DNA of 53,295 bases, from NCBI GenBank assembly GCA_947627085.1, contig CANQUO010000001.1, positions 1 through 53,295 on the forward strand, given 5' to 3'. The notes below the pieces were generated by a model, which saw only the letters and a list, made by a program, of their open reading frames with translations, did no database searches and was not told the DNA's origin. Below, one piece after another: positions 2,721-52,619 of the stretch. Within the stretch, counting starts at the first letter, position 1; each line of letters begins with the position of its first letter. Position numbers and translations under genes: made by a program. Origin of the DNA: an uncultured Oscillospiraceae bacterium (GTDB taxonomy: Bacteria > Bacillota > Clostridia > Oscillospirales > Oscillospiraceae).

Positions 2721-3023
2721 GGCGCATTTACGCAACATTTGAACGGCCTTAGCAAGGACAAGACGGGTGAGATTAACGCAAGACCGAAAACCCGCAGGCT
2801 TTCCCTTCTGGCATTAAAAGCAATGCCTTATAATTTCGTTTCCCGTAAATGATCCGGTGAATTTGCACCGTATCGTCCGCGACCTTATAAAAGACCAGAT
2901 ACTTCTCCACCACAAGCACCCGATAACCGTGGGCGGAGAGGGCCAGATCACGGGCGCGCGGACAGCGTTCAGGCATCGTAGAGAGACTGGCTATTTCCCC
3001 GGTAAGCAGGTCGTAATATTTAA

Positions 3024-3042
3024 TACTAATATCTAATTAAAA
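3024..3042. repeat. Left terminal inverted repeat of the MITE-like element
   Basis: Matches the reverse complement of 3165..3183 at 18 of 19 positions. Confidence 0.8.
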
Positions 3043-3164
3043 TAAGCCATTCGCGGCGGCCTTTTTTGCGTCATGCGGCGTCAGCCGCCTTGGAAATACC
3101 AATGGGTATTCCCTGCGTCGCCTTCCTTGCCTGACACGAAATATCCTCGCCGCTCGGTGTCTCC

Positions 3165-3183
3165 TTTTAAATAGATATTAGTA
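3165..3183. repeat. Right terminal inverted repeat of the MITE-like element
   Basis: Matches the reverse complement of 3024..3042 at 18 of 19 positions. Confidence 0.8.
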
Positions 3184-3266
3184 TAAGCGCGGCTTGCGGG
3201 GAGAGGGTGTTCAGGTAATCGATCACGCTGAGAAGGTCCTGTTTGGCGGCGGGATATATGATAACT

Positions 3267-3542
3267 TTATATTCCCGTTCCATGGACACGCTCCCGAAGC
3301 TGACGGGCCACCGTCTGAAAATCTTCGCCCTTGGCGCCGTCCGCTATCTCCTGCTCCGCAATGGCGAGCTTGCCGTAAAGCTCAAGGAGCGCGGCTTGAC
3401 GCTCGTATTCCTCGGTACTGAGTACCACAATATCCCCGGAACCGTTACGGGTGATGAACACCGGCTCGCGGGTCCGATGGCAGAAGTCGGAAATTTCATT
3501 GGCGTTGTTCTGCAAATCGGATATGGGACGGATCATAGACAT
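3267..3542 (-). CDS. Phd/YefM-family type II antitoxin
   Basis: MSMIRPISDLQNNANEISDFCHRTREPVFITRNGSGDIVVLSTEEYE is the classic Phd/YefM N-terminal fold signature. The ATG at 3542 lies 6 nt after AAGGAGGTG, and the listed GTG at 3551 lies inside that RBS. The gene sits immediately upstream of the toxin gene and overlaps it. Confidence 0.8.
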   Translation of the reverse strand: MSMIRPISDLQNNANEISDFCHRTREPVFITRNGSGDIVVLSTEEYERQAALLELYGKLAIAEQEIADGAKGEDFQTVARQLRERVHGTGI

Positions 3543-3565
3543 GACTGCCACCTCCTTGTGGAGAT

Positions 3566-3701: not shown

Positions 3702-6700
3702 TCACGGATTATTGGGCCAGTAGCCGTAGTGGACGAACTGTTGGCCTCCTTTTGTACCCTTTGTATTATCAGGGTAACCCTTTACCACGGCGGGGAAGGG
3801 ATAGCTATCCGGGCTCGGAGCTGTCGTGGTGCTGGAGTCGGGTTCGGCCCAGAAGCTGATAACAGTGTCTCCTGATTGGCTAAAGCCAGTACCAGCACCC
3901 ATGCAGGTTTTGAGTTGATCCAAGGTCGCTGCGGTGACGCCACTACTGCCCCAATCCCTCGCTCTTCCGGATAGGCCGTCGCTCCAGTAGTGGCAGTTTT
4001 GGTAGTTACCATCTCGATAACCAACTGGGCCAATACCGTATTTGACACTACTAGTGATCTTCATATAGGAGTATACGTTCTTATAGATTACAGCTCCATA
4101 AGTACCATGTGCTAACCCCACGATTCCGCCGAAGTAGCCGTTGCCGCTGATCTCGCTGCCGGCGTAACTATTCGTGATGTTGACGCTGCCGGCATTCACA
4201 CAGCCAACAACCCCGCCGGCACAATGTGCATTATCCCCTGTATACTCCAGCTTATTGACTGCTTCACTGTTATTGATGTACAAATAATAGTTTCTACCTC
4301 CTGCTCTGTTAACTTCGCCGACCAGACCGCCGAGATACTGCGATGAATTGGACATTGAGTATCCTGCGACAACGCAGTTCGCGATATTGATGTCGCCATA
4401 ACCGGTAACGGAACCGGCCAGGCCGCCAGCGGCCGCACCACTACCGGTAACCGTCGCGGTTCCGCTGGGGGAGTAGAGGATGATGTTCTCAAGTTTGGTG
4501 TCATACCCTCTGACAGAGGTGAACAGGCCGCTCGTCATGTTGAGTTCCAGGATGCGGTAGCTCTGGCCGTCATACGTTCCGATGGGTTCCGAACTCCACT
4601 CTCTGCCGAAATCGCTTGCGCCGGTGTAGATATAGCTGCTCCCCGCATACACATCATGAGTCTGCTGGTAGCTGTGGTTATCTTTGTCCGGAATATTATC
4701 CAGCTGGCGCACGTTGCGGATTTGGTAGGGGGTGCCAGAAGAGCCCAAGCTGTTGTCCAGCGAAATAGCCGCCGCAAAACCAAGGTTGAGATAGTAGGTG
4801 TATTTACCGCCGGCGGGATTGTCTATCTCGCTTGTGACGGTCGTGGAGGCATCCGCCGTCGCGCCGGTGTAGACTTTGACAGTTGCGTCATCATAGGAAT
4901 ACCCTGCTAGAGCATCATTAAGGGCGGCGGCTAAGCCAGTGGGGGCGGTGGCGCTTATATCCGTAACGCCGGTGCCGCTGAGGGTATCTGTCAACCCAAT
5001 GGTGCCGTAGCCCCAGTCGGTGTTGCTGGTGGCGTAGGTGCCCATCGCCTCTTCCACCGAGTGGTGCGTCTTGCAGAGGGTGCTGATGGGCGAAAGCGGT
5101 GTCGCGGTTGTGCCGCCGGTTTCAAGGCCCAGAACGTAGACCTCGTAGCCACTGCCCTCCTTTGCCCAATAGAAGCAGGCCTCGATCTTCGCCACCGGCC
5201 AGTCTCCGTAGTGGGCGGTCTGACCGGAAACGTAGGGGTACTGTTTGGGCTTCGTCAAATCCGGCTGGCCGGTGGTAGCATCCTTATCATACAGAGCCTC
5301 GTCGTAGGGATAGGTCTTGAAGCCGGAAGTGGTGTTGTCGGTGGGGGTGGTGAGGTAAGTTTCCTCGCGCAGGTCGCCTTTAATGGCCGCACCCAGGGCG
5401 TAGGCGGTGTTGGTGGTCCCGACAGTGACGCTTGCCGTCGGATCGCCTGTTGTATTATCCGTCCGTACACCGCCAACCAGCAATCCGGCAAGGTCTGAGC
5501 CACTGGCATCAGCGCTTACCGAGCAGGTGGAGTAGTTGACGCCGCTGAGCGTGGCGATGCCATTATCATCACCCTCGACATAACCAATCAGTCCGCCGAC
5601 CTGCTTGTTGCCGGACACGTTGGCATCGCTTGTGTCATAGGTGCCGCTCTTTGTGTGGCCGCCGGAGTAGCAGTCGGTGAGAGTGGTGGTCACGCCAGCG
5701 TCCACGGCAAGCTTCCCAATCAGCCCGCCAACTTCATCGTAGCCTTTCACCTTCACGGCGGCGAAGCATTTCTCAAGCTTAGTGCCTGATTTAACGCTAC
5801 CAATCAGACCGCCGGTGCTTGCTTTATCGGAGTTCCTAACGACCTTAAACGTTTCGTAGGCGTCCGCAACGCCGGTGGGCTTGTTGCCGGTTGTATTGTC
5901 CACATAGACGCCGCAGTCGGTGACGGAATCCCCCTGAAAACGTCCGGCCAGAGCGCCCGTGTGGTTTTCGTTACCAGAAGTGCTCACAATGCTCACATTC
6001 ACCAGACGGATATTGCTCAGGGTGCCTCGCGTGTTCCCGAACAGGCCGGTCCCACTCTCGTTGGTACCCTCACCAATGTAGAGGTTGCGGATGAAGAAAT
6101 GGTTGCCATCATAGCTACCGCCATTTTTGCTCAGCGAGGCCGGGGTCTGGCGTGGGCCGGTACTACTCTTGCCCTTCAAATCCGCGTCCGCGTACTTGTC
6201 GTAGTCGATATTCAGCAACTGCACATAAGCACGCTTTTGGGCGGCTTTCTGGGCTTCTGTGCCCTTGTTAAACTCGTCCCCCGTGGCCGCCGCAAGATTC
6301 GCCAGTTGCCGCGCGGTACGGATCACGACTTTACCGTCGAAGTTGCCGGTCAACGTACTACCGGTACCCGCCGCGCCGTCCTTGGCTTGGGGCGTTGCGG
6401 GCTTGGGAGTCGTCGTTTCCTGTACGATCTCGCACGCGAAGAACGGGTTGAACCAGTATTTCGCGCCGCCAAGGTCAATTTCGTAGTAATAAGACGTTTC
6501 GTCTGAACCGTCGCTGTTGACATCCGCGATGTAGTCATCAAGGCCGGTGATTTTGTGAAGCTCGTATGTGGTGCCGTCATGCTCGACTGTGACGGCGTTG
6601 TTGGACGCGTCTTTGATTTGTTCAACATCATAAGACTTCCCGTCCACCGTGACGCTGGCCGGGGCCGAATCACCGTCCTTTACCAGCACGCAGTACCCAT

Positions 6701-8978
6701 CATCCGTGGCGTAGGGGCCGCTGGGGCCGGTGGTGCCAACGGCGAGGGTGTTTACAGGGGTAGTCGTCCCGCCTGCCGGGTCGACAATATAGCCCCACAC
6801 GCCGTAGGTGCCGTTGACGACATCGTAGTAGCAGAAGGAACTGGCGGAGGCCTCTTTGAGCCAGTCGCCGTAGTGCATGGTGAGGTGCGTGGCGTAGGGG
6901 TAGACGGTGGTTTTCAGCGTTTCGTCGTAGGGGACGGTTATGAAGTCGGACACCGTGTTTGTGCCGCGATCGGTGCCGAGGTAGGTGTTTTCGTCGTGAA
7001 GGCCGGTTGTGATTTTGGTTGGCGTACCGCTACTCACGTCAAACGCTTCGCCCGTGGCATAGATTTTGCCGTCAGGCGTTGTAGAATCGCGCTGGACGTT
7101 TACAGAACTACTAACAGTCCCAATCAGTTGTCCGCAGGTGCTTTGATTAGCCGCTACCGTTATTCCCACGGAGCAAGTGCTGTAATTGTTGCCGGAGAAG
7201 GTGAGTGTATAGCCTGAACCGGTGCTGTCGTCCACACCCCCAATCAGTCCGCCCACGTTCTGGTCTCCGGCCACATTTGCGCTGACATACTTCCCGTCCA
7301 CGGTGTGGCCGCCGGAGTAGCAGTTTGTGAAGGCGGAATTGGAATTTACCTGTCCGACAAGTCCGCCGACGTCGGTAGCGCCGGTCACCTTCACGGAGGC
7401 GAAGCTTTGGGACAAAGCCGCCGCTGAGGTTATATTGCCGACAAGACCGCCGACATGCTCCGCTCCCTCGACTGTAAGCTCATCGTAGGGGTGTTCAACG
7501 GCGGCAACGGTGGCCGGTTTGCTGACTTCGTCCACATAAGCGCCGCAGTTGGTGATAACAGTGCCGTTGTACTGCCCGGCCAGCGCGCCCACGTTGTTGC
7601 CGCCGGTGACGTCGGCGTTCACAAGGCGGATTTTTTTAAGCTCAGCGGCGGTGGTACCGAACAGGCCGACATTTTCGCCGGTTTCGTCGATAAGCAATTC
7701 GCTGATGGCGAGCCCCGCGCCGTTGTAGGAGGTGAGTTTGTCATTTTTGATCGGCGTGAAATTGCGTATGGGTTTGGCCGCCGTTCCGTATGTTTTCGCC
7801 CATGAGTAGACATCACTCACGCCGGTGGCGTCAAAATCGATGTTCCGGGTCTGGACGGCGCTTGTGATTGTGTCGGTCACGCCGGAGGTGTCTTTGTTCA
7901 GATTTTGCAGATGCCGCCCGTAGGCGATATGGGCGGTGTATTTGCCTGTTCCTAAGCCTGCGGGGTCAGTAATCTCCTCCACGTCGGCGAAGAGGCTGTT
8001 GACGTCTCGCCAGTACACGCGTTGGGAAATGTACTTGTTGCCGCCAGCGTCGTAGGCGGTGACCTTTACCGTGATGTCAAAATTCGCGCCGGGGGTGATG
8101 GTGTAGATGCCTGACCCCGACACTGTCTCGACCCAGTTTTTGAAGCTCTTGCCTACGCTCCATGCCGCTTTCGAAGGCGTGTTTGGATAGTCTGTTTTGA
8201 GGGTGTCCAAGGCGATTGTGCCGGTGTAAACATCTGAACCTTCTACTAAATCGACATCATCGTTGCCCACAATTTTCGAGAAGATGGACACTTCTTCCCC
8301 ACCACCGGAGGCGGTAATCGTCACATTTGCCTTGACGGTATCGATCGGACCGGTAGCATCACGCGGCACGGTGATGGTCAGCAACAGTTCCTCGGCGTTT
8401 GTCACCTGGAGGGACGGGATGGGGGTCTGGTTGAGCTTCAGACGCTCGACATTGGAGTCGAAGCCGGGGCCGCCGTAGTAGCCCACCATGTTGCCGTTTT
8501 TTAACCGATCGCTCTTGTCCGGATTGACGGTGGTATAGGCTTTCGAATATTCAAAGTCGCCGTCATCTTCCCAGTACCAAACCGCGTAGACTACGCCGGA
8601 ATCCGGGAAAATCTCCACCACGTAATGGCCGTCGTGGAGCTGGGATTCGATGGAGCCACCGAGTACGATGGTGTCGAGGTTAGCATCTTCGGTCACGGGG
8701 GTAAGCTCGACGTAGCCCACACCGGGCACACTCACCGTTTTTGAAGTACCGAGGGCCGTGAGGTCCTCACCGGCGGCTGTCATGGCCGTAAGTCTGCTCT
8801 GGGCGGCCATGAAGATGGTCTTGGCGCTGTCGTCCAGCTCCGTGAGCTTCAGGGAGCGGTAGTAGGCCAGGACGTTGGGAATCGCTACGGCCAGAAGGAT
8901 TCCGATGATCGCAACGACGGTCAGGACCTCGGCCAGCGTGAAGCCACGGCGGTTTCTTCTTTCTGATTTTTTGAACAT
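3702..8978 (-). CDS. Giant (1758 aa) protein with a type IV prepilin N-terminal cleavage/methylation domain and three GLUG-repeat modules
   Basis: The N-terminus MFKKSERRNRRG/FTLAEVLTVVAIIGILLAVAIP gives Gly at -1, Phe at +1, Glu at +5 and a hydrophobic helix. Three paralogous modules span approximately aa 345-706, 885-1260 and 1415-1754. They are rich in VGGL(V/I)G GLUG motifs, and each ends with HYG(D/Y)WP. GAGGTG lies 8 nt before the ATG. Confidence 0.85.
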   Translation of the reverse strand: MFKKSERRNRRGFTLAEVLTVVAIIGILLAVAIPNVLAYYRSLKLTELDDSAKTIFMAAQSRLTAMTAAGEDLTALGTSKTVSVPGVGYVELTPVTEDANLDTIVLGGSIESQLHDGHYVVEIFPDSGVVYAVWYWEDDGDFEYSKAYTTVNPDKSDRLKNGNMVGYYGGPGFDSNVERLKLNQTPIPSLQVTNAEELLLTITVPRDATGPIDTVKANVTITASGGGEEVSIFSKIVGNDDVDLVEGSDVYTGTIALDTLKTDYPNTPSKAAWSVGKSFKNWVETVSGSGIYTITPGANFDITVKVTAYDAGGNKYISQRVYWRDVNSLFADVEEITDPAGLGTGKYTAHIAYGRHLQNLNKDTSGVTDTITSAVQTRNIDFDATGVSDVYSWAKTYGTAAKPIRNFTPIKNDKLTSYNGAGLAISELLIDETGENVGLFGTTAAELKKIRLVNADVTGGNNVGALAGQYNGTVITNCGAYVDEVSKPATVAAVEHPYDELTVEGAEHVGGLVGNITSAAALSQSFASVKVTGATDVGGLVGQVNSNSAFTNCYSGGHTVDGKYVSANVAGDQNVGGLIGGVDDSTGSGYTLTFSGNNYSTCSVGITVAANQSTCGQLIGTVSSSVNVQRDSTTPDGKIYATGEAFDVSSGTPTKITTGLHDENTYLGTDRGTNTVSDFITVPYDETLKTTVYPYATHLTMHYGDWLKEASASSFCYYDVVNGTYGVWGYIVDPAGGTTTPVNTLAVGTTGPSGPYATDDGYCVLVKDGDSAPASVTVDGKSYDVEQIKDASNNAVTVEHDGTTYELHKITGLDDYIADVNSDGSDETSYYYEIDLGGAKYWFNPFFACEIVQETTTPKPATPQAKDGAAGTGSTLTGNFDGKVVIRTARQLANLAAATGDEFNKGTEAQKAAQKRAYVQLLNIDYDKYADADLKGKSSTGPRQTPASLSKNGGSYDGNHFFIRNLYIGEGTNESGTGLFGNTRGTLSNIRLVNVSIVSTSGNENHTGALAGRFQGDSVTDCGVYVDNTTGNKPTGVADAYETFKVVRNSDKASTGGLIGSVKSGTKLEKCFAAVKVKGYDEVGGLIGKLAVDAGVTTTLTDCYSGGHTKSGTYDTSDANVSGNKQVGGLIGYVEGDDNGIATLSGVNYSTCSVSADASGSDLAGLLVGGVRTDNTTGDPTASVTVGTTNTAYALGAAIKGDLREETYLTTPTDNTTSGFKTYPYDEALYDKDATTGQPDLTKPKQYPYVSGQTAHYGDWPVAKIEACFYWAKEGSGYEVYVLGLETGGTTATPLSPISTLCKTHHSVEEAMGTYATSNTDWGYGTIGLTDTLSGTGVTDISATAPTGLAAALNDALAGYSYDDATVKVYTGATADASTTVTSEIDNPAGGKYTYYLNLGFAAAISLDNSLGSSGTPYQIRNVRQLDNIPDKDNHSYQQTHDVYAGSSYIYTGASDFGREWSSEPIGTYDGQSYRILELNMTSGLFTSVRGYDTKLENIILYSPSGTATVTGSGAAAGGLAGSVTGYGDINIANCVVAGYSMSNSSQYLGGLVGEVNRAGGRNYYLYINNSEAVNKLEYTGDNAHCAGGVVGCVNAGSVNITNSYAGSEISGNGYFGGIVGLAHGTYGAVIYKNVYSYMKITSSVKYGIGPVGYRDGNYQNCHYWSDGLSGRARDWGSSGVTAATLDQLKTCMGAGTGFSQSGDTVISFWAEPDSSTTTAPSPDSYPFPAVVKGYPDNTKGTKGGQQFVHYGYWPNNP

Positions 8979-9014
8979 ATGGCGGACACCTCGCTAAGAT
9001 AGGCACCGCCCGGT

Positions 9015-9040
9015 GGCCCAAAAGGTACACCTTTTGAACC
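9015..9040. repeat. hix/gix-like recombination site L (imperfect 12-2-12 palindrome, core AC)
   Basis: Sequence GGCCCAAAAGGT AC ACCTTTTGAACC. Its reverse complement matches 9131..9156 at 21/26 positions overall and 20/22 in the core. Confidence 0.6.
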
Positions 9041-9066
9041 AGTGGCGGAAAGCCTTGATTTGCCTG

Positions 9067-9095
9067 TTGAACTAATAGAAATAGCTACATAATAT
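9067..9095 (+). promoter_or_regulatory. Opposing promoter-like element facing antisense into the recombinase gene
   Basis: On the plus strand, TTGAAC (9067..9072), a 17-nt spacer and TAATAT (9090..9095). There is no TG extension. Confidence 0.35.
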
Positions 9096-9122
9096 TGTAT
9101 CACGGCGCGGAAATAATTTCAA
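9094..9122 (-). promoter_or_regulatory. Promoter facing the pilin-like gene in this assembly (extended -10)
   Basis: On the minus strand, TTGAAA (9117..9122), a 17-nt spacer and TACAAT (9094..9099), preceded by TGa. Confidence 0.5.
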
Positions 9123-9753
9123 TAGGGCGCGGTCCAAAAGGTGTACTTTTTGTTACAGGTTCTTCTCTGACCCACCGCAAAAAGGTGCTGTGAGAGACGC
9201 CCAGCTCCTTGGCCGCCTGCCGGGAGGCGAGGAGGCCGGAGGTGTAGCGCGCCAGCACGCCGGGATATCCCGGCGGCCTGTCGAGCCGGGGACGGCCAAA
9301 TCGGACGCCGCGCTCCCGCGCCGCCGCGATGCCCTCCGCCTGGCGCTGGCGGATGAATTCCCGCTCCGTCTCGGCCACGTAGCTGAGAAGCTGCAACACG
9401 ATATCCGCGATGAGCGTGCCGGTCAGGTCCCGGCCCTCCTGCTGGGTGTCGAGGAGGGGCATGTCCAGCACCACGATGGCGGCCCTTTTTACCTTGGTGA
9501 TGAGCCGCCACTGGTCCAAAATCTCCTCATAGTTTCGCCCGAGCCGGTCGATGCTCTTGACCACGAGAGTGTCGCCGGCCTTCAGCTTTTTCAGGAGCCT
9601 TTTGTAGCCGGGGCGCTGAAAGTCCTTCCCGGACTGCTTGTCCGTGACGATCTGGGTCTCCGGCACGCCGAAATTTCGCATGGCGATGAACTGACGGTCC
9701 TCGTTCTGCTCCCGGGTGGACACGCGGATATAACCGTACATTTTTCCTTCCAT
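9100..9753 (-). CDS. Small serine recombinase (resolvase/invertase family) with C-terminal HTH
   Basis: MYGYIRVSTREQNEDRQ contains the catalytic Ser motif of the resolvase/invertase family. The C-terminal AAKELGVSHSTFLRWV is an HTH. AAGGAGGAG lies 5 nt before the ATG. Confidence 0.85.
   Translation of the reverse strand: MEGKMYGYIRVSTREQNEDRQFIAMRNFGVPETQIVTDKQSGKDFQRPGYKRLLKKLKAGDTLVVKSIDRLGRNYEEILDQWRLITKVKRAAIVVLDMPLLDTQQEGRDLTGTLIADIVLQLLSYVAETEREFIRQRQAEGIAAARERGVRFGRPRLDRPPGYPGVLARYTSGLLASRQAAKELGVSHSTFLRWVREEPVTKSTPFGPRPIEIISAP
9131..9156. repeat. hix/gix-like recombination site R (imperfect 12-2-12 palindrome, core GT), inside the 3' end of the recombinase gene
   Basis: Sequence GGTCCAAAAGGT GT ACTTTTTGTTAC. 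It is inverted relative to site L and has the same central dinucleotide. Confidence 0.6.
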
Positions 9754-9849
9754 TTGATCTCCTCCTTGTTAGATTACTCTTTCAAAAAGGAAACTAATAT
9801 AATTCCCCCGCGGGGACGCAAGACATATTTTTTCAGGAGGAATAAAAAT

Positions 9850-9890
9850 CAACCAGCAGTTTTCCTGCTGGTTGAAGGATTTTTATTTTT
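9850..9890. terminator. Bidirectional terminator (ends the ExbB/ExbD-like operon and would also stop plus-strand antisense transcripts)
   Basis: Stem CAACCAGCAG / CTGCTGGTTG with loop TTTTC. It is flanked by AATAAAAAT on the left and AAGGATTTTTATTTTT on the right. Confidence 0.7.
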
Positions 9891-9903
9891 ACCGGTGATG
9901 GTC

Positions 9904-10269
9904 TCAGCCGGGGACCTTGGGGGTGATACTGAGGTCCTCGAACACCTTGAGCACCCACTCGTAGGTGGCCTCGATGGCGTTCTCCTCCGCGATCTCGAAG
10001 GTGTGAGAGTCGTCGTTCAGGGCCTCCACAGCCGCCTTGAAGGCGTCGGGCTCGGTATAGTCCTTCCCGTCCAGGGTGACGGTGGACTCGCGGATCGTGA
10101 CGACGATCACGCCGGTATCCGGGCCGCTTTCGTCCGCGCCCTGACTGCCGGAGGGTGTCGACTCGCCCTCCCCGCCCTTTCCGCCGCCAAGGCCGAAGCC
10201 ACGGAACAGCAGGAAGGCCACAAGGGCTATGACCGCGATGATAATGATGAATTTGATGACTTTTTTCAT
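9904..10269 (-). CDS. Small membrane-anchored protein with an ExbD/TolR-like C-terminal domain
   Basis: An N-terminal TM helix KFIIIIAVIALVAFLLF is followed by a Gly/Ser-rich linker and an approximately 70-aa alpha/beta-like domain. The start overlaps the upstream ExbD-like gene by 4 nt. Confidence 0.45.
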   Translation of the reverse strand: MKKVIKFIIIIAVIALVAFLLFRGFGLGGGKGGEGESTPSGSQGADESGPDTGVIVVTIRESTVTLDGKDYTEPDAFKAAVEALNDDSHTFEIAEENAIEATYEWVLKVFEDLSITPKVPG

Positions 10270-10817
10270 GTGTGTTCCTCCTCATTTTTTTCGGCGATCC
10301 GCAAAAAGACCTCCTTGTGCTCCCGCTGGAGCTCCTCAAGGGTGCGGACCACGGCCTCATATTCGCGCCTGTATATGGCGTCCTTATCGCAGTGGAAGAA
10401 TATGTACACCGGGAACCCGCCGCTGTCATTTATGACGTCCTCCGCCAGGCTCCCGAGCCTCGCCGAGACGTTCTCAAGACGGCTTGTCCCCAACAGTATC
10501 ACCTCCGGCTCGCGTGTATCGCCGTCCACGGCGACGCGGAGCCGGTGGACACCGCCGCTCATGAAGTTGGAGACCGTGACCACCCGGGCGCCCTCCCGGA
10601 TGATCTCGGCGCTTTCAAGCTGTGCCCTCAGCGTCTCCAGCTCCTCCTGAAGGTCCGCTATCTCCTCCCGAAGCCCGTCGGCCTCCTCCTTCGCCGCGTC
10701 GGCGTTGGCCCTCTCGTTCTGTGCCCCGGCCAGCAGGACGATGAAGAGTATGGAGAAGAGCACGTCAAGAAGCGGCGTCAGGTTTATCTCGCCGCCGCCG
10801 TGACGGGCCCGCCTCAT
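10266..10817 (-). CDS. ExbD/TolR-family protein with a coiled-coil extension
   Basis: EINLTPLLDVLFSILFIVLL is the ExbD/TolR TM signature including the conserved Asp. It is followed by a heptad-like EEADGLREEIADLQEELETLRAQLE stretch. Confidence 0.65.
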   Translation of the reverse strand: MRRARHGGGEINLTPLLDVLFSILFIVLLAGAQNERANADAAKEEADGLREEIADLQEELETLRAQLESAEIIREGARVVTVSNFMSGGVHRLRVAVDGDTREPEVILLGTSRLENVSARLGSLAEDVINDSGGFPVYIFFHCDKDAIYRREYEAVVRTLEELQREHKEVFLRIAEKNEEEHT

Positions 10818-11389
10818 TTCGCCTCCTCCGCCGCGGGCAGGTCCTTCAGGGCGTCGTTCTTCACGCCGTAGTCCTTCTCAAAAAGGTCCATGGTGTCCTC
10901 GATGGGCCCCACCACCACGGCGTCGGTGACTATCTCCACCGTCTTGAAGAGCACGGCGCATATTATGCCGTAGACCGTGGAGGACAGGGCAAAGCCGATG
11001 CCCTCATAGGAAAAGCCCTCGGATGACAGGGAGGCGCTGTTCAGCGCGATATAGAGCCCCGCCACGGTCCCCAAAATGCCCAAAAGCGTAAAGAGCTGTA
11101 TGGCGGTGGTGAAGATGTCGTAGGGGATTATCTTCTTCCGGTAGCCGTCGCGAAAGGCGATATACGCCTCCCAGTTCTCCCTTGTGACCACGCTCTTCGT
11201 CTCGGTTATGACCCTTGAGCGGTTTTTATGCCAGGAGATGCGGCTTTCCACCTGGCGTATTTTTCCGAGCTCCCGCTTCGCGGACATGAGCCTTCTCAAG
11301 GCGTAGACCCACAGCATGAGCTCCCCCACGCCGAGGACGATTATGGTCCCGTTCAGAACGCGATAGAGGAGGTTGCATATTACCAGCAT
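10814..11389 (-). CDS. MotA/TolQ/ExbB-family proton-channel protein
   Basis: Three hydrophobic helices are present. LLGILGTVAGL and ALSSTVYGIICAVLFK resemble the MotA/ExbB signature. The start was chosen at the ATG 11389 (MLVICN...) after GGGAGAAAGAGAGAA, although the ORF is open up to 11458. Confidence 0.6.
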   Translation of the reverse strand: MLVICNLLYRVLNGTIIVLGVGELMLWVYALRRLMSAKRELGKIRQVESRISWHKNRSRVITETKSVVTRENWEAYIAFRDGYRKKIIPYDIFTTAIQLFTLLGILGTVAGLYIALNSASLSSEGFSYEGIGFALSSTVYGIICAVLFKTVEIVTDAVVVGPIEDTMDLFEKDYGVKNDALKDLPAAEEAK

Positions 11390-11484
11390 TTCTCTCTTTC
11401 TCCCACTCGATACTGATTTGCATATGCCGAGTATATCACACCCTCGGCCCATAAGCAAGGAAAATCCACATCATGTAAAATCCG

Positions 11485-46225: not shown

Positions 46226-49102
46226 ATGTTTTACAGGATGATCGAGAGTGCCAGGGACAGGTGGTTTGGGTCGGAGGACTGTACGGTTCGGGACCTTGTT
46301 AAATATATGGAGGCCCGCGGACAGATGCGGGATGCGCAGGTGGACGCCATAAAGACGTACCTCTTTTTGAAGATCGCCTGCGGTTGCAAACCGCTTTCCA
46401 GGCTGTTTTCCGAGGGGCGCTTCAACTCACTTGACATCGCGGAATTAGCCCTGCCGGACAGCGTGAAAAATTACTTCAGGGTCCATCCGTCCGCCGCCGC
46501 GCTCTACGAATACGCCACGCTCAAAAGCGACAGGGACCAGCAGATGTCGCCGGAGCTTGAAAGGGTTTTGGCAACTGACCCGGAGAGCGTTGACTGCGCC
46601 TACTTTTTCCGCAGGTCCTTTTATAATGTGACTTATACCGACTATCTTTTCAGCCTGCCCATGGGGGCGGGAAAGACATATCTCATGGCGGCGTTCATCT
46701 ATCTTGACCTCTACTTTGCCATGAATGAGCCGAAAAACACGGCTTTTGCCCACAATTTCATCATACTCGCGCCTTCGGGCCTTAAATCCTCCGTGGTGCC
46801 CAGCCTGCGCACGATCCAGAATTTTGATCCCTCATGGGTGCTCCCGGAGCCCTCCGCAAGTGCTGTTCGGCGCCAGATATCCTTCGAGGTGCTGGACCAG
46901 GAGAAAACGGCGAAGAAGTCAAATAAAACCAAGAACCCAAACGTCCAGAAAATTGCGAACCACCAGCCCCTGACGGAGCTTTTTGGCCTTGTGGCCGTCA
47001 CCAACGCCGAAAAGGTGATACTCTACCGTATCGAGGAGAAAAACGGTCAGTTCGATATGCTGGAGGACAGCGAGGACGAGAAGGACAGGCAGGCCAATGA
47101 GCTCAGGAATCTCATCGGCAAGCTGCCGTCCCTCTCCGTGTTTATCGACGAGGTCCACCACGCCGTCAGCGACGAGATTAAACTCCGCGCCGTGGTCAGC
47201 CGCTGGGCCGAGAATGGCGCTGTAAACTCAGTAGTGGGCTTCTCCGGCACGCCGTATCTGGAAAAGCCGGAGAAAAACGCCGTGACGGACAAGCTGTCCG
47301 TGGCCACGGCGGAGATCACCAATATCGTCTATTACTACCCGCTCATTGCCGGTGTGGGCAACTTCCTCAAGCGCCCGGTGGTGAAGATCGCCGACATGGC
47401 CGACAGCGCCCGCATCATCGAAAACGGCGTCCGGGAGTTTCTTGACACATACAAAAATACCGTCTACCGTGACGGCACAACGGCGAAGCTCGGCATTTAC
47501 TGCGGCACCATTGAAAAGCTGGAACAGCTTGTCTATCCGCTGGTGTCGTCTGTGGCCGCCGAATACGGCCTTTCCCAGAATACCATTTTGCGCTTTCACA
47601 AGGGCAACAAACAGTACCCGCAGCCGGCGGACAGCCAGATGGAATTTGACATTCTGGACAAGCCCATCTCCCGCACGCGGATCGTCCTTCTGGTACAGAT
47701 AGGCAAGGAGGGCTGGGACTGCAAGAGTCTTACGGGTATAATCCTCTCTCAGGAGGGAGATTGCCCCAAAAACATGGTGCTCCAGACCTCGTGCCGGTGT
47801 CTGCGTCAGGTGGACAAGGACGCCCCGGAAACGGCCTTGATCTACTTAAATGCGGATAACGCCGAAAAGCTCAACGAGCAGCTTGAACAACAGCACCATA
47901 TCACCCTTCGGGAGTTTACCGACGCCAAGTGCGGCGAAAAGCTTCTGAACCGATATGACAGGACGAAATATCTCAAGCTCCCCAAGGTGGAGTTTTATCA
48001 GCTTTGCGTCCGATTTGATACCGTTACCGCCGAGCCAGCCGATCCGGGGCGGGACATTGCCGCCGCGACAGTTGGCGCGGAGCTTGGGCTTGAGACTGTG
48101 ACCACCACGGACCTCACTATGAAGCCATTTATTAAGGAGATCGACGATGCCGAGCGCGGCGAGACCCCGGCGGAGTTCACCCGGTGGTTATATGAGATTG
48201 CCCGGAGCAGTATCGGGACTGTAACTATGGAGGTCCTTCGTGTTTACAGTGACGAGCTTAAAAGGGTGTTTGATACTGTTACATACGAGCGTGACGGCAA
48301 CCGCTTTTTCAGCTCCAGATTTGACCGGCGTGTAGTTGAGGCCAATATTCGCAAGGCATTCAGCGACAGACGCTCCTTTGAGACGGTGGAGGAGCTCATA
48401 CCGGAGGAGGCCGGGCTTCTCAATATAGCAAATTTCAGGCCGATCGTAAGGACCGACGAGCCGGAGGCCTATTACCCCGACGAGAGGACCGTGGAGAATA
48501 TCATATTGGCCGATGCCGGAAAGCTGAAAAAGGACCCCAGAGTTGAGGAGACAGCAAGGGCGTTGGAGGAGCTGGGCAATAAAAAGATGGCCGACGATTT
48601 GAGACGCAAGAGCAGCTCTCACGCCCAGAAGGACATATCCTTTCACTATCTGCCCTACCGCACTGACAGCGGCTTTGAGCGCCGCTTCATGGACGAGCTC
48701 CTGCCGTATCTGGGCGGGGAAAAGCTAAAGCCGTTTGACTTGGAGCTTTACTATAACGGCGACAGGGCGCTTACCGAGTTTAAGATAAAGTGCTACAAGT
48801 CCGTAAACGGCCACTGGCGGTATATTGGCCTCTACACGCCGGACTTTCTCATCCTCCAGCGCCGGGAGGGGCGGATACATAAGGCCATCATCGTCGAGAC
48901 CAAAGGCGAGGCCTACGCCGACGCCCAAAGCTTCAAAGACCGCCGCGCCTTCATGGAGACGGAGTTTATCAGGAAGAACAACGAGAAATTCGGGTATGAG
49001 AGGTTTGAGTATTTGTATTTGGAGGACAGTATGGACGAGAAACAGCGGATGAAGATAGTCAAGGAGAAGATTGAGGAGTTTTTTGAGGAGGCGCTAACTT
49101 GA
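46226..49102 (+). CDS. res: Type III restriction Res-like SF2 helicase with a C-terminal PD-(D/E)xK nuclease
   Basis: Walker A LPMGAGKTY, motif II VFIDEVHHA (DEVH), motif III GFSGTPY, QIGKEGWDCKSL and QTSCRCLRQ (motifs V-VI). The C-terminal YTPDF...IIVETKGE is a PD..ExK nuclease motif. At 958 aa, it is similar in size and layout to type III Res subunits. Confidence 0.75.
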   Translation: MFYRMIESARDRWFGSEDCTVRDLVKYMEARGQMRDAQVDAIKTYLFLKIACGCKPLSRLFSEGRFNSLDIAELALPDSVKNYFRVHPSAAALYEYATLKSDRDQQMSPELERVLATDPESVDCAYFFRRSFYNVTYTDYLFSLPMGAGKTYLMAAFIYLDLYFAMNEPKNTAFAHNFIILAPSGLKSSVVPSLRTIQNFDPSWVLPEPSASAVRRQISFEVLDQEKTAKKSNKTKNPNVQKIANHQPLTELFGLVAVTNAEKVILYRIEEKNGQFDMLEDSEDEKDRQANELRNLIGKLPSLSVFIDEVHHAVSDEIKLRAVVSRWAENGAVNSVVGFSGTPYLEKPEKNAVTDKLSVATAEITNIVYYYPLIAGVGNFLKRPVVKIADMADSARIIENGVREFLDTYKNTVYRDGTTAKLGIYCGTIEKLEQLVYPLVSSVAAEYGLSQNTILRFHKGNKQYPQPADSQMEFDILDKPISRTRIVLLVQIGKEGWDCKSLTGIILSQEGDCPKNMVLQTSCRCLRQVDKDAPETALIYLNADNAEKLNEQLEQQHHITLREFTDAKCGEKLLNRYDRTKYLKLPKVEFYQLCVRFDTVTAEPADPGRDIAAATVGAELGLETVTTTDLTMKPFIKEIDDAERGETPAEFTRWLYEIARSSIGTVTMEVLRVYSDELKRVFDTVTYERDGNRFFSSRFDRRVVEANIRKAFSDRRSFETVEELIPEEAGLLNIANFRPIVRTDEPEAYYPDERTVENIILADAGKLKKDPRVEETARALEELGNKKMADDLRRKSSSHAQKDISFHYLPYRTDSGFERRFMDELLPYLGGEKLKPFDLELYYNGDRALTEFKIKCYKSVNGHWRYIGLYTPDFLILQRREGRIHKAIIVETKGEAYADAQSFKDRRAFMETEFIRKNNEKFGYERFEYLYLEDSMDEKQRMKIVKEKIEEFFEEALT

Positions 49103-49530
49103 GCGAATTATGGGCAATTATTCTCGGCGCCGAGTTGGCCACGGCCGGAGGTTTGACGGGTACTTTGTTTTCAGAGCATCTGAAGAAACGGGAAATAATT
49201 TATAATGACAAAAAGGACGCATATATAAAATTATTAGAGGTGATCAACCTTATATATATGAAAGGAATCGACCCGGCAAATCGCGAGCAATGTAGCGATG
49301 AGATTTTCAAGGAGACGGCAAAGGCTCAACTATATGCCAGCAAAAGTGTAAAAAAATGTTACGATGATTTTTTCACCGTAGTCTTTGGTTTAGGTCCGGA
49401 CGATATAGCCGGTGATCCGAAATTGGAGGAGCTTAAGGAAGAAATGGTCACACAAATACAAGAGGATTTAGGTTTCAAGAGACCCGTTGTCGTGAATCGA
49501 ATTTTTTATAAATTAAAAAGTACGAGGTGA
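49099..49530 (+). CDS. Small (143 aa) N-terminally membrane-anchored helical protein of unknown function
   Basis: TTG start 8 nt after GAGGAGG, overlapping the res stop (TTGA). The hydrophobic N-terminus LWAIILGAELATAGGLTGTLF precedes a Lys/Glu-rich helical remainder. The gene is visibly more AT-rich than its flanking genes. Confidence 0.55.
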   Translation: MSELWAIILGAELATAGGLTGTLFSEHLKKREIIYNDKKDAYIKLLEVINLIYMKGIDPANREQCSDEIFKETAKAQLYASKSVKKCYDDFFTVVFGLGPDDIAGDPKLEELKEEMVTQIQEDLGFKRPVVVNRIFYKLKSTR

Positions 49531-49536
49531 GTATAC

Positions 49537-51543
49537 ATGCCGATTAAATACATCCCCTTCACCCCAGAACCCGTTGACGGCCAAGCTGTCCTCAATTTCA
49601 ACCGCGTCCTGAAATACAAGGGCGTGGACGATACCCGCATGGTTCTCCAGCGCGGGATGCCGCTTTATGAGGTGGAGTGTACCGAGCGGGTGGGGGAGAA
49701 CCCGGACGGGAATATGGTCATACGGGGTGAGTGCGTCTCCGCCTGCGCCTATCTGAAGGAGCGGGGTATTCAGGTGGACCTTGTATACATAGACCCTCCA
49801 TTCGCCAGCGGCGCGGACTACGCCAAGAAGGTCTATATCCGCCGCAATCCAAAGGTGGCCGAAGCTATCGCTGAGGCGGAGAAGGAGCTTGAGGTCGATG
49901 AGCTCCGGGCTTTCGAGGAGAAGATGTACGGCGACGTGTGGGATAAGGAGAAGTACCTTAACTGGATGTATGAGAACCTCATGGCCATCAAGAGCGTCAT
50001 GAGCCCGACCGCCTCAATTTATGTGGAGCTTGACAGCCACATCGGTCACTATGTGAAGATACTTATGGACGAGGTCTTTGGAGAGAATAATTTTATAAAT
50101 GAAATAATCTGGAAGCGCACCTTTTCACATTCGGACGTGGGGCAAGGAGCGAAGCATCTCGGACGGCTTCACGATGTGATATTTTATTATACGAATTCGG
50201 AGGAATACACTCTGAATACGGTTTATACCCCATACTCTGAGGAATATATAAAGAATTTCTACAAATTCACAGACCCGGACGGCAGGAAGTACCGTCTGGT
50301 ATCCATGCTCGGACCTGGAGGGGCGACAAAGGGTAACCCGTACTACGAGGTAATGGGCGTAACACGCTATTGGGCATTCAGCAAAGAGAGCATGAACAAA
50401 ATGATCGAGAACGGGCAGGTGATACAGACGCGCCCTGGAGCCGTGCCACAGCGCAAAAGATACCTGGACGAGTCAGAAGGAGTGCCCTTGCAGGACCTTT
50501 GGATGGATATTCCGGCTGTGCAGGGCGGGGCAATAGAGAATACCGAATACGCCACCCAAAAACCGGAGGCTCTGCTGGAGCGGGTCATAAAGACCTCCTC
50601 GAATGAAGGTATGCTCGTCGCCGACTTCTTCGGCGGCAGCGGCGTCGCGGCGGCGGTAGCGGCTAAGCTGGGCCGCCGTTTCATCCACTGTGACATCGGC
50701 CTCAATTCCGCTCAGACTACCCGTGACCGGCTCAGAGCGAACGGCGCTCAGTTTGATGTGATGGAGATAAAGGACGGCGTTCAGCTCTACCGCAATCCCG
50801 TCCAGACCATGGAGAAGATAAAGTCCCTGATTCCCGGCCTTAAGAACGAGGACTCCCTGGACTCCTTCTGGGAGGGTGTCATCTCCGACAGCCGCCTTGG
50901 GACCGTGCCTGTCTATGTCCCGAACCTGATGGACAGCTCCTCTAAGCTTCTGGACGAGGTGATGATGAACCGCATTCTCCACCAGGCCATACCGGAGCTG
51001 GACGGCAGTATCAAGAAGGTCATCGTCTACTACATAGACATCACCGACGAGGAGGCTATCCGGCGCTTCATCAAGGACGACGACAGCACTCTGGTGGAGG
51101 TTGAGCTTCGGGACCTGAAGACTGTGCTGGACGATGTAGTGGTGGGAGACTACGCGGAATTTCACGTGGAGCGGGACGAGAGCGACATGTTTGGCGGCTA
51201 CAACGTGGTGATAGACAAATTCATCAGCGACCGTGTTACGCGGAAAATTGACGAGTTTAACCAGAAATCGCGCCTCAACTCCGCCAAAAAGCCCTTCAAA
51301 CCCATTGAAATCAGCGCCGAGGGTTTGGAGCTTATTGAGTACCTGAGCCTTGACTGCACATCAACGGAGGGCGAATGGCACTCCGACAGCGAGGTCAAAA
51401 TCGACAAGAACGGATTCATCACCCTGAACGGAACGAAAACCAAAGACTTCTGGACAGGGTCTATCCATGCGGACAAGATGCCTCTGAGATTAAAAATCCG
51501 TAATATCTGCGGGGATGAGAGCGTGTGGGAGGTGAAAAGGTGA
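49537..51543 (+). CDS. mod: Type III Mod-like (beta-class N6/N4) DNA methyltransferase with a long C-terminal extension
   Basis: Motif IV is LVYIDPPFASGADY. After an approximately 290-aa variable region come EIIWKR and motif I VADFFGGSGVAAAVA, so the order is IV-TRD-I. An extra C-terminal stretch of about 270 aa follows. Confidence 0.8.
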   Translation: MPIKYIPFTPEPVDGQAVLNFNRVLKYKGVDDTRMVLQRGMPLYEVECTERVGENPDGNMVIRGECVSACAYLKERGIQVDLVYIDPPFASGADYAKKVYIRRNPKVAEAIAEAEKELEVDELRAFEEKMYGDVWDKEKYLNWMYENLMAIKSVMSPTASIYVELDSHIGHYVKILMDEVFGENNFINEIIWKRTFSHSDVGQGAKHLGRLHDVIFYYTNSEEYTLNTVYTPYSEEYIKNFYKFTDPDGRKYRLVSMLGPGGATKGNPYYEVMGVTRYWAFSKESMNKMIENGQVIQTRPGAVPQRKRYLDESEGVPLQDLWMDIPAVQGGAIENTEYATQKPEALLERVIKTSSNEGMLVADFFGGSGVAAAVAAKLGRRFIHCDIGLNSAQTTRDRLRANGAQFDVMEIKDGVQLYRNPVQTMEKIKSLIPGLKNEDSLDSFWEGVISDSRLGTVPVYVPNLMDSSSKLLDEVMMNRILHQAIPELDGSIKKVIVYYIDITDEEAIRRFIKDDDSTLVEVELRDLKTVLDDVVVGDYAEFHVERDESDMFGGYNVVIDKFISDRVTRKIDEFNQKSRLNSAKKPFKPIEISAEGLELIEYLSLDCTSTEGEWHSDSEVKIDKNGFITLNGTKTKDFWTGSIHADKMPLRLKIRNICGDESVWEVKR

Positions 51544-52619
51544 ACATTTTACTAATTGGAAACGGATTTGACTTGGCCCATGGATTACCGACAAGGTATA
51601 AGGATTTCCTTGGATTTATTTATGTTCTTAGTAAAGCGCCGGATTACAAGAATAAACCAGGTTATGCGGACCTTATTGAAAAAATGAATACTAATCCAGA
51701 AGTAAAGTCTTATTTGCGGAAAGAGTACCCTAACTATAAAGAATCACGTTCTAAAGAAATGTTGAGGCTTTCGAAGGACAATGTTTGGATTGAATTCTTT
51801 TTAAAGATTAATGAAACCGCACCAGACGGATGGGTTGATTTTGAACACGAAATAGCCATAGTGATTCAAACGTTTGATAAATTGCGCAATTTGGATTATG
51901 ACGATCGTGTAGGAACAGTACATTATGCAAAAGCTATGCCCGGTATACTGGAAAAGTATAATTTGTTTGATAGCACCAGGGTTTCTACAATAGAACCAAA
52001 TGCTACTAAACGCCTCCTCTCTGATTTGGAGCGTTTAACGCGATGCCTTGAAATCTATCTGCGGTTATGTGTAGAGATGATAAAGCCATCAGAAAGACTT
52101 TATGCTTTATCAGAGATCCGACGTGTTGATGCGGTGCTGTCATTTAACTACACCGATACTTTTGAAAAAATATATGAACCCTCGCTTGATACTAAACCTA
52201 AATACTGCTATATTCACGGAAAGGCTCGCTTTAAAAATGAGCGCGCAAATAATATGGTGCTTGGTATAGATGAGTACTTGGACGAGTTAAACCGTGATAC
52301 AAGGGTGGAATATATTAGGTTTAAAAAATATTACCAGAGAATATTCAAGTACACAGACTATAACTATACAGAGTGGTTTAAGCGTCAAGAGGAAAAAAGA
52401 TTATTTATTATTGGCCATTCTTTGGACGCTACGGATAAAGATGTCCTTAGAGAAATCATCACCGCGGATAGTGTGGAAACAATTATTTATTATCACAATA
52501 TAGATTCTAATGCTCGACAAATAGAGAATCTGGTAAAAGTACTTGGATATGACAAGCTCAATGAATTAGCCAGAGGACGCGGAGGAACAAGCAGTATTAA
52601 ATTCCGCCAGCAACTGTGA
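51540..52619 (+). CDS. abiH: AbiH-family abortive-infection protein
   Basis: NILLIGNGFDLAHGLPTRYKDFL is the AbiH N-terminal signature, and FIIGHSLDATDKDVL lies near the C-terminus. The GTG at 51540 follows GGGAGGTG by 5 nt and overlaps the mod stop (GTGA); an alternative GTG is at 51525. The gene is strongly AT-rich. Confidence 0.75.
   Translation: MNILLIGNGFDLAHGLPTRYKDFLGFIYVLSKAPDYKNKPGYADLIEKMNTNPEVKSYLRKEYPNYKESRSKEMLRLSKDNVWIEFFLKINETAPDGWVDFEHEIAIVIQTFDKLRNLDYDDRVGTVHYAKAMPGILEKYNLFDSTRVSTIEPNATKRLLSDLERLTRCLEIYLRLCVEMIKPSERLYALSEIRRVDAVLSFNYTDTFEKIYEPSLDTKPKYCYIHGKARFKNERANNMVLGIDEYLDELNRDTRVEYIRFKKYYQRIFKYTDYNYTEWFKRQEEKRLFIIGHSLDATDKDVLREIITADSVETIIYYHNIDSNARQIENLVKVLGYDKLNELARGRGGTSSIKFRQQL

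Follow-up and report, generated by a model that had tools for sequence, protein, structure and literature searches.

Surface structures subject to phase variation influence colonisation, evasion of immunity and sensitivity to phages, and mechanistic knowledge of them comes almost entirely from Proteobacteria, Bacteroides and Clostridioides difficile. Here we describe a locus in a 53,295-nucleotide stretch of DNA from an uncultured Oscillospiraceae bacterium (assembly GCA_947627085.1, contig CANQUO010000001.1, positions 1 to 53,295; hereafter the window). In this locus a small serine recombinase gene lies upstream of a giant prepilin-type gene, the presumed regulated gene, and a short promoter-bearing segment at their junction is bracketed by two inverted 26-bp sites, L (distal) and R (proximal). 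We put the probability that the locus is an inversion switch at roughly 0.85, and the switch probably gives clean ON/OFF control of the pilin. This interpretation is supported by comparison with relatives; for the strain itself, flipping, catalysis and transcriptional outcome are what we infer from sequence. The locus ties a prepilin-type adhesin of 1758 residues to a compact inverton of the serine-recombinase kind, in a genome that is high in GC and gut Clostridia-like. This type of switch is familiar; the giant pilin target, a minimal architecture found family-wide and a helical-phase rule are useful additions.

In function the window switch most resembles the Hin switch and the promoter invertons that Mpi flips in Bacteroides. 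Unlike both, it is cis-dedicated and very short, and it overlaps part of the recombinase open reading frame (ORF). Hin/hix, Gin/gix, Cin/cix and Pin likewise rely on small serine recombinases whose catalytic domain is N-terminal and whose helix-turn-helix (HTH) is C-terminal. Hin and Gin share with the window 26-bp sites made of 12-bp inverted half-sites around an asymmetric 2-bp core, with a CAAAA tract in the half-sites, and in Hin, too, the flipped promoter segment controls a surface-filament gene. The segments differ greatly in length (116 bp here, ~1 kb for Hin and 3 kb for Gin). In contrast to Hin and Gin, the window recombinase gene lies outside the segment with its last codons reaching in, no Fis-type enhancer is apparent or expected in the switch, whose 90-bp interior is mostly promoter, and Gin is a poorer structure match to the enzyme (E ~1e-18) than is Sin (6e-28). 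To our knowledge, Bacillota lack Fis.

Mpi of Bacteroides fragilis is also a small serine recombinase of a gut anaerobe, and it flips short promoter segments to turn surface structures ON or OFF. The window enzyme aligns with the Mpi family model (NCBIfam NF009949) over its full length (residues 5–199) but scores 55.3 bits against a cut-off of 272. Whereas the Mpi repeat motif is of the ARACGTWCGT type, the window repeat is AAAGGT-GT-ACCTTT, and whereas Mpi acts in trans on many promoters, the window contains just one switch for its enzyme, adjacent to the gene. In C. difficile, short invertible regulatory segments precede the flgB flagellar, cwpV and cmrRST surface and motility genes, and papers such as PMC5386303 and PMC2784873 treat switches of this sort. 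RecV of that species belongs to the tyrosine recombinases and works in trans at several sites, in contrast to the serine recombinase found here. Several RecV switches act after transcription initiation and not by carrying a promoter.

Sin, beta recombinase and the gamma-delta/Tn3 resolvases include the closest solved structures by sequence and come from Gram-positive hosts; Sin and beta recombinase require HU-type bending within a compact site. These enzymes resolve direct-repeat res or six sites with accessory subsites, whereas the window switch has two single crossover-type sites in inverted orientation, and the DNA between such sites is seen inverted in nature. DNA inversion likewise controls a type IV pilin or adhesin in Moraxella (Piv) and in the R64 shufflon (Rci, PilV). 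There, a DEDD-type enzyme (Piv) and a tyrosine recombinase (Rci) swap pilin coding segments, whereas here a serine recombinase would flip the promoter and leave the pilin coding sequence untouched.

Sites and putative promoter between the recombinase and pilin genes

Sites L and R (Table 1) have the hix/gix-type layout: 26 bp arranged 12-2-12, a non-palindromic 2-bp core and inverted orientation. An earlier note on this DNA had called them hix/gix-like, which is right for the layout and wrong for family membership, the enzyme being closer to Sin and gamma-delta than to Gin (E values against solved structures of 6e-28 for Sin/Bin3, 1e-21 for gamma-delta resolvase and 8e-19 for Gin). The site sequences and 12-2-12 arrangement given there were borne out by direct reading, and recomputation returned the same 21 of 26 identical positions between R and the reverse complement of L. 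The coordinates also agree with its placement of R in the 3′ end of the recombinase gene and of L 36 nt before the pilin ATG (8978–8976, minus strand). Site R lies within the last 19 codons of the recombinase ORF, past its HTH. The half-sites are palindromic at 10/12 positions in L and at 8/12 in R. Both sites retain a GT-NN-AC core, and the plus-strand sequence confirms that their AC and GT centres, 116 bp apart, are compatible only when aligned in inverted orientation. The 90-bp interior has a G+C content of 41%, against 57% for the window. In the flipped state the predicted plus-strand junctions would read GGCCCAAAAGGTACACCTTTTGGACCGCGCCC and CCGCCACTGGTTCAAAAGGTGTACTTTTTGTTAC.

A repeat search ranked the L/R pair first among inverted repeats in the region (22 nt at 91%). 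When the whole 53-kb window was scanned for inverted pairs of 26-mers with at least 21/26 matches and a spacing of 60–260 bp, only two loci emerged, the switch pair and an unrelated pair at 3023–3184. No pair of this kind arose in 20 first-order Markov simulations of the window, on which count a chance origin of the site pair was rejected. A 12-2-12 site model had no further match anywhere in the window. The palindrome of site L was also considered as a terminator hairpin and rejected as such, since its loop would be 2 nt and it lacks a T-run.

An 18-nt direct repeat (TTTTGAAC...TGGCGGA, 83% identical, at 8969–8986 and 9032–9049) connects the inner end of site L with the pilin start-codon region. 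On the minus strand, the copy at the start codon is TCCGCCATATGTTCAAAA, which contains a half-site-like GTTCAAAA. Conservation of this repeat in the related locus L081 is weak at best, and it may be a product of chance or a partial third binding site.

P1 is the sole sigma-70-like promoter match of a scanner run over positions 8700–10100 on both strands. It scores 10/12 consensus positions plus TG and faces the pilin gene in the assembled orientation; the TG of its extended −10 is provided by the recombinase stop codon, TGA (9102–9100). P1 is kept as TTGAAW-17-TGATAnAAT in all seven aligned relatives, in either orientation of the segment, and the start region TATGTAG is conserved in all seven interiors when these are aligned in a common orientation. 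It is by consensus and conservation, then, that we regard P1 as a putative promoter. The earlier note had described two back-to-back promoters. Both sequences are present, but the opposite one matches the consensus at only 8/12 positions, falls under the scanner threshold, lies in a region that is not conserved and is slightly offset from the position implied there. Because this second promoter is weak and not conserved, ON/OFF output, or ON with basal read-through, is likelier than the high/low output which that note had suggested. A strong intrinsic terminator of the upstream gene is predicted to insulate the recombinase–switch–pilin cassette from upstream transcription.

The recombinase and pilin genes share the minus strand, an orientation that the earlier note had not given. 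The ORF of the recombinase is uninterrupted and encodes a resolvase-type catalytic domain, the motifs YGYIRVST (containing Ser12) and SIDRLGR, and a C-terminal HTH. The N terminus of the pilin reads ...RRG and, across the cleavage point, FTLAEVLTVVAIIG, a prepilin cleavage/methylation motif (G/FTLxE) followed by a hydrophobic alpha1 helix. It matches the profiles N_methyl (PF07963, E=3.6e-7) and TIGR02532 (26.5 bits, cut-off 16.3) and resembles pilin alpha1 helices among solved structures. Many GLUG-like (VGGLVG) repeats can be read from the translation, precomputed Pfam Glug matches on the relatives' orthologues are 'faint' only, and no tandem repeats were found in the pilin gene. No type IV pilus assembly genes (PilB, PilC, PilD) occur among the scanned ORFs of the window, so any machinery for the giant pilin must come from outside it.

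Segment orientation in related loci

The five protein clusters nearest to the recombinase (P0002–P0006, 80–83% identity) all lie directly upstream of N_methyl proteins of 1242–1816 aa. The genomic neighbourhoods of these cassettes are otherwise unrelated, and the recombinase, switch and giant pilin therefore constitute a two-gene cassette. All of the closest recombinases contain the site-encoded motif V[TA]KSTPFG, the proximal site being kept inside their 3′ ends. The distal site, though non-coding, is conserved as well, and the two centres are exactly 116 bp apart in every case.

The segment between these conserved sites occurs in both orientations. P1 points toward the pilin (orientation A) in the window and in loci L089, L098–L101 and L102, and the reverse complement (orientation B) is found in L081–L088, L090–L092 and L093–L097. 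Of these, L093 (B) and L098 (A) represent one chromosomal locus, where PAP2 and glycosyltransferase genes lie upstream and a giant pilin gene follows. Identity between the two is 93.7% in the upstream DNA and 96.7% in the recombinase gene, and their interiors are 81.9% identical when one is flipped as opposed to 58.9% unflipped (shuffled controls, at most 54.7%). The earlier note had named both orientations at orthologous loci as a check, and L093 and L098 show them at one shared locus. It had also held that a lack of site conservation beside homologous recombinases would speak against the switch; in the closest relatives the sites are kept, with the spacing of 116 bp and a downstream gene of like type. 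Its central proposal of a serine-recombinase-operated invertible promoter before the giant pilin gene thus gains support from homologous segments that stand both ways in relatives.

The annotated C terminus and length of the recombinase depend on switch orientation. One type of tail belongs to proteins of 216/217 aa ('...STPFGP/T..E..S..', for example ...GPNALELLSTL and ...VTAPIEFISAP), and the assembled window protein (217 aa, ...GPRPIEIISAP) is of exactly this form. The other belongs to proteins of 223 aa ending in '...AT' (for example ...GTEAKSRNLYIVIKEIAT), and the ORF computed for the flipped window segment (224 aa, ending ...PVELIEIAT; STPFEPVAESLDLPVELIEIAT) is of exactly that form.

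A sister group provides direct evidence from nature that recombinases of this family use these sites for inversion. Metagenome contigs were scanned with the 19-nt site CAAAAAGTACACCTTTTGG, giving 62 loci, about 38 of them with a homologous recombinase on the same stretch, most at 53–64% identity. According to tblastn, sister-group recombinases usually sit within a few hundred bp of the matched site; the scan did not recover the pilin-linked subfamily. One sister species, whose recombinase is ~55% identical to that of the window and whose sites are near-identical, is represented by nine contigs from different samples that carry a 165-bp interior in two orientations, one in L105, L117 and L131 and the other in L129, L136, L141, L142, L151 and L158. 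These interiors are 94–98% identical only in matching orientation and 76–81% identical otherwise, and the downstream flanks are up to 100% identical.

Two of the metagenome contigs have features of their own. At L121 (3280–3516) the distal flank stands on both sides of the invertible segment, a hairpin-like chimera that is expected if an assembler meets both orientations in one sample. At L131 (reverse complement, ~725–1300) the switch is followed by a ~570-nt leader, which may hold further regulatory RNA structure, and then by two signal-peptide surface-protein genes (~610 and ~1440 aa).

In the switch that we propose, dimers of the 217-aa recombinase would bind both 26-bp sites, synapse across a tight 116-bp (11-turn) loop and cut at the 2-bp AC/GT cores, inverting the 114-bp segment. 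In the assembled orientation, P1 would fire through the distal site and a ~109-nt leader into the pilin gene (ON). In orientation B it would fire antisense into the 3′ end of the recombinase gene, leaving the pilin with the weak, non-conserved element and possible read-through from the recombinase gene (OFF or basal). Inversion would also exchange the non-essential C-terminal tail of the recombinase (217 versus 224 aa), and antisense feedback of P1 on the recombinase is possible.

Table 1. Coordinates of the switch, the genes beside it and other mapped features of the window
Feature	Position	Strand	Description
Giant pilin, 1758 aa (prepilin-type, class III signal peptide)	3702–8978	minus	Pfam N_methyl
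Pilin ribosome-binding site, GAGGTG	8992–8987	minus	8 nt ahead of ATG
Site L (distal)	9015–9040		12-2-12; plus-strand reading GGCCCAAAAGGT-AC-ACCTTTTGAACC; minus-strand reading GGTTCAAAAGGT-GT-ACCTTTTGGGCC; non-coding, 36 nt 5′ of pilin ATG
Predicted invertible segment	9029–9142		114 bp between central dinucleotides AC (9027–9028) and GT (9143–9144)
Weak opposite element	9067–9095	plus	TTGAAC (9067–9072) -17- TAATAT (9090–9095); 8/12; −10 overlaps that of P1
P1 (putative promoter)	9122–9094	minus	TTGAAA-17-TGaTACAAT; −35 TTGAAA 9122–9117, extended −10 TGaTACAAT 9102–9094
Site R (proximal)	9131–9156		12-2-12; plus-strand reading GGTCCAAAAGGT-GT-ACTTTTTGTTAC; minus-strand reading GTAACAAAAAGT-AC-ACCTTTTGGACC; overlaps recombinase codons ...PVTKSTPFG...
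Small serine recombinase, 217 aa	9100–9753	minus	Pfam Resolvase E=2.3e-30; sub-threshold HTH_50
Intrinsic terminator of upstream gene	9849–9875	minus	11-bp stem, T-run
ParE-type C-terminal fragment, 67 aa	2773–2976	minus	ParE_toxin profile positions 45–89
ParE-type N-terminal ORF, 40 aa	3167–3289	minus	
Intact Phd/YefM antitoxin	3267–3551	minus	upstream of both toxin pieces

Alternative readings of the locus

Inversion could occur and yet have as its main output a graded, high/low expression of the pilin, or control of the recombinase itself through the tail swap and antisense transcription. The element TTGAAC-17-TAATAT on the opposite strand agrees with this, as does orientation B, which aims P1 at the recombinase gene and extends the tail from 217 to 224 aa. 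So does the layout downstream: the scan of 8700–10100 found no terminator between the recombinase and pilin genes, because of which the OFF state may be leaky, a point that also counts against a clean ON/OFF switch. However, the −35 of the 8/12 element is missing in L090 and L089, and it is the promoter DNA that dictates the tails, since the TG of the extended −10 is the stop codon. The C-terminal tail is itself unlikely to be functional because more distant homologues end before the site; its exchange looks like a by-product of the promoter DNA. We regard a graded or recombinase-directed main output as unlikely.

Other observations weigh against a working inversion switch in this strain. A 116-bp loop is energetically costly and would probably need a DNA-bending cofactor. 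The scan of 8700–10100 on both strands detected no promoter for the recombinase itself. An exact look-up of the window recombinase in public assemblies gave no match, and the protein collection has it as a singleton, so that we infer flipping in this strain from other loci. Each pilin-linked strain type was found in one orientation (P0124-type all B, P0125/P0003-type all A), in a look-up that went by exact protein and is for that reason orientation-biased. Finally, the L081 and L090 lineages were seen in orientation B (OFF) only. The distal, pilin-proximal site of L081–L088 and L090–L092 is degenerate (GTTAGAAAAAGC-GT-ACCTTATTGAAC, for example at ~6475–6500 of L081), its position −1 being C and its outer half differing at two positions. 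Every member protein of these clusters has the B tail, except for a separate P0128/P0129 lineage (L102) with intact sites, and the switches of the L081 and L090 lineages may be locked OFF.

From such points one could argue that the architecture is real but a fossil in the window, locked ON and with no meaningful flipping, owing to weak recombinase expression or an imperfect proximal site. The missing recombinase promoter, the degenerate one-orientation lineages and the uniform strain types all fit, and site R is the less symmetric of the two (8/12), its outer half GTAACAAAAAGT departing from the consensus. Against this, an outer half of the form GT[TC][AG]CAAAAAGT is kept in all close relatives, those of opposite orientation included, and is therefore how the site normally looks. 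The recombinase, moreover, has an intact ORF with its catalytic motifs, and both sites keep their GT-NN-AC cores and compatible AC/GT centres. We give a fossil switch only a slim chance.

That the sites are res or operator binding sites of the Tn3, gamma-delta or Sin type, serving cointegrate or multimer resolution or autoregulation without inversion, is highly improbable. In favour of such a role, Sin/Bin3 and gamma-delta resolvase are the solved structures most similar to the enzyme in sequence, the cassette is present in differing genomic contexts and classic res regions place several imperfect palindromes within ~86–120 bp beside the resolvase gene. This reading is largely refuted by the orientation polymorphism, the interior standing both ways between fixed flanks in close relatives and in the sister species, which a res site would not show. 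In addition, only an inverted alignment makes the cores compatible, both sites are found on the downstream side of the gene with a conserved promoter between them, and the window holds no second set of sites for resolution.

Site spacing and the wider recombinase family

For an inversion switch, the earlier note had worried that the segment is short for synapsis. Homologues answer this worry, using segments of 94–167 bp that are phased at ~10.5 bp. Centre-to-centre spacings at 24 non-redundant loci are 103, 113–117, 125–128, 134–138, 157 and 167 bp, to which plasmid pGTC3 adds 94. Their periodicity peaks at 10.5 bp with a phase near zero (R=0.69, Rayleigh p ~1e-5, the loci being related and their kinship ignored), and none of 5000 random sets reached R=0.69 when the period was scanned from 9.5 to 11.5 bp, kinship again being ignored. 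Turn numbers of 11, 12, 13, 15 and 16 are interspersed across identity levels, and the phasing is therefore not simply inherited. This periodicity implies a helical-phase requirement that would place both dimers on the same face of the helix, with loops of ~9–16 turns. HU is a plausible bending cofactor, by analogy with Sin and beta recombinase. Quantisation of the spacing at 10.5 bp provides a testable rule for serine-recombinase inversion of ~100 bp.

More distant homologues, at 53–71% identity, comprise loci L001–L080 and the metagenome loci L103–L164. The scan of genome contigs yielded relatives at no more than 71% identity, informative on family architecture though not on this species. 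About 30 of the more distant loci carry inverted pairs with GTGTAC/GTACAC or GTAGAC/GTCTAC cores just past the recombinase gene, enclosing strong promoters in either orientation. These were found by a core-anchored pair search; a strict 8-2-8 model missed many of them. L065 and L074 are paralogous recombinase–switch modules on two contigs of Flavonifractor sp. HCP28S3_F3, with repeats 137 bp apart, and their internal promoter TGGAAA-17-TGATATAAT points in opposite directions. On the conjugative Enterococcus faecalis plasmid pGTC3 (L165, 4120–4245), a recombinase of 52% identity accompanies a 94-bp switch with sites AAAGGT-AG-ACATTT and AAAAGT-CT-ACTTTC. The promoter of this switch (TAGACA-17-TATAAT) uses the inner half-site as its −35 and faces the genes of an Rrf2 regulator and a leucine-rich-repeat protein. 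A Collinsella homologue (L166) had no repeat pair, and more than 8000 recombinases match at E<=1e-40.

The genes downstream vary across this wider family and include signal-peptide surface proteins and helicase or defence-like genes. The recombinase–switch module thus recurs across Clostridia and on an Enterococcus plasmid, before surface-protein and defence-like genes, and its size of ~0.8 kb is small enough for a genetic toggle in Gram-positive anaerobes. We offer as a tentative idea, possible although still doubtful, that the family represents a very large, essentially uncharacterised group of cis-acting 'minimal invertons' in Bacillota. These would consist of a 94–167-bp promoter cassette at the recombinase 3′ end, with sites spaced by integral turns and synapsed in a very tight loop without a Fis-type enhancer, perhaps with help from HU. 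Antisense feedback could make switching biased or hysteretic, and in the pilin-linked subfamily the targets of phase variation would be giant, modular adhesins of the type IV pilin kind in gut Clostridia.

A limited literature search found no description of this recombinase–switch family. Inverton surveys report groups dominated by Clostridia and tied to tyrosine recombinases (PMC11892184); that paper describes no link to serine recombinases, and a search for the switch repeat motif in the text of its supplements found nothing. For small serine recombinases beside defence genes, inversion has only been speculated upon (PMC13552941). A link to the view that small serine recombinases mark defence systems was considered and rejected, EF_B0058 and EF_B0059 of E. 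faecalis pTEF2 being 54 bp apart and co-transcribed, a different arrangement.

The other inverted pair found in the window (arms 3023–3049 and 3158–3184; 27 nt at 85%) has AT-rich arms around a GC-rich 108-bp core and lies inside a ParE-type toxin gene that is split in two (region 2773–3551; Table 1). It looks like an insertion resembling a miniature inverted-repeat transposable element that inactivated the toxin, unrelated to the recombinase sites. At the right end of the window, a stretch of low G+C content (46226–52619; 0.40–0.55) resembles a defence island, with genes for an AbiH abortive-infection protein, a ResIII-type helicase/restriction subunit and an N6/N4 DNA methylase. Immediately upstream of the cassette on the minus strand (9833–11458) lie genes for a MotA/ExbB-family protein and a weakly ExbD-like protein, together with a 198-aa ORF.

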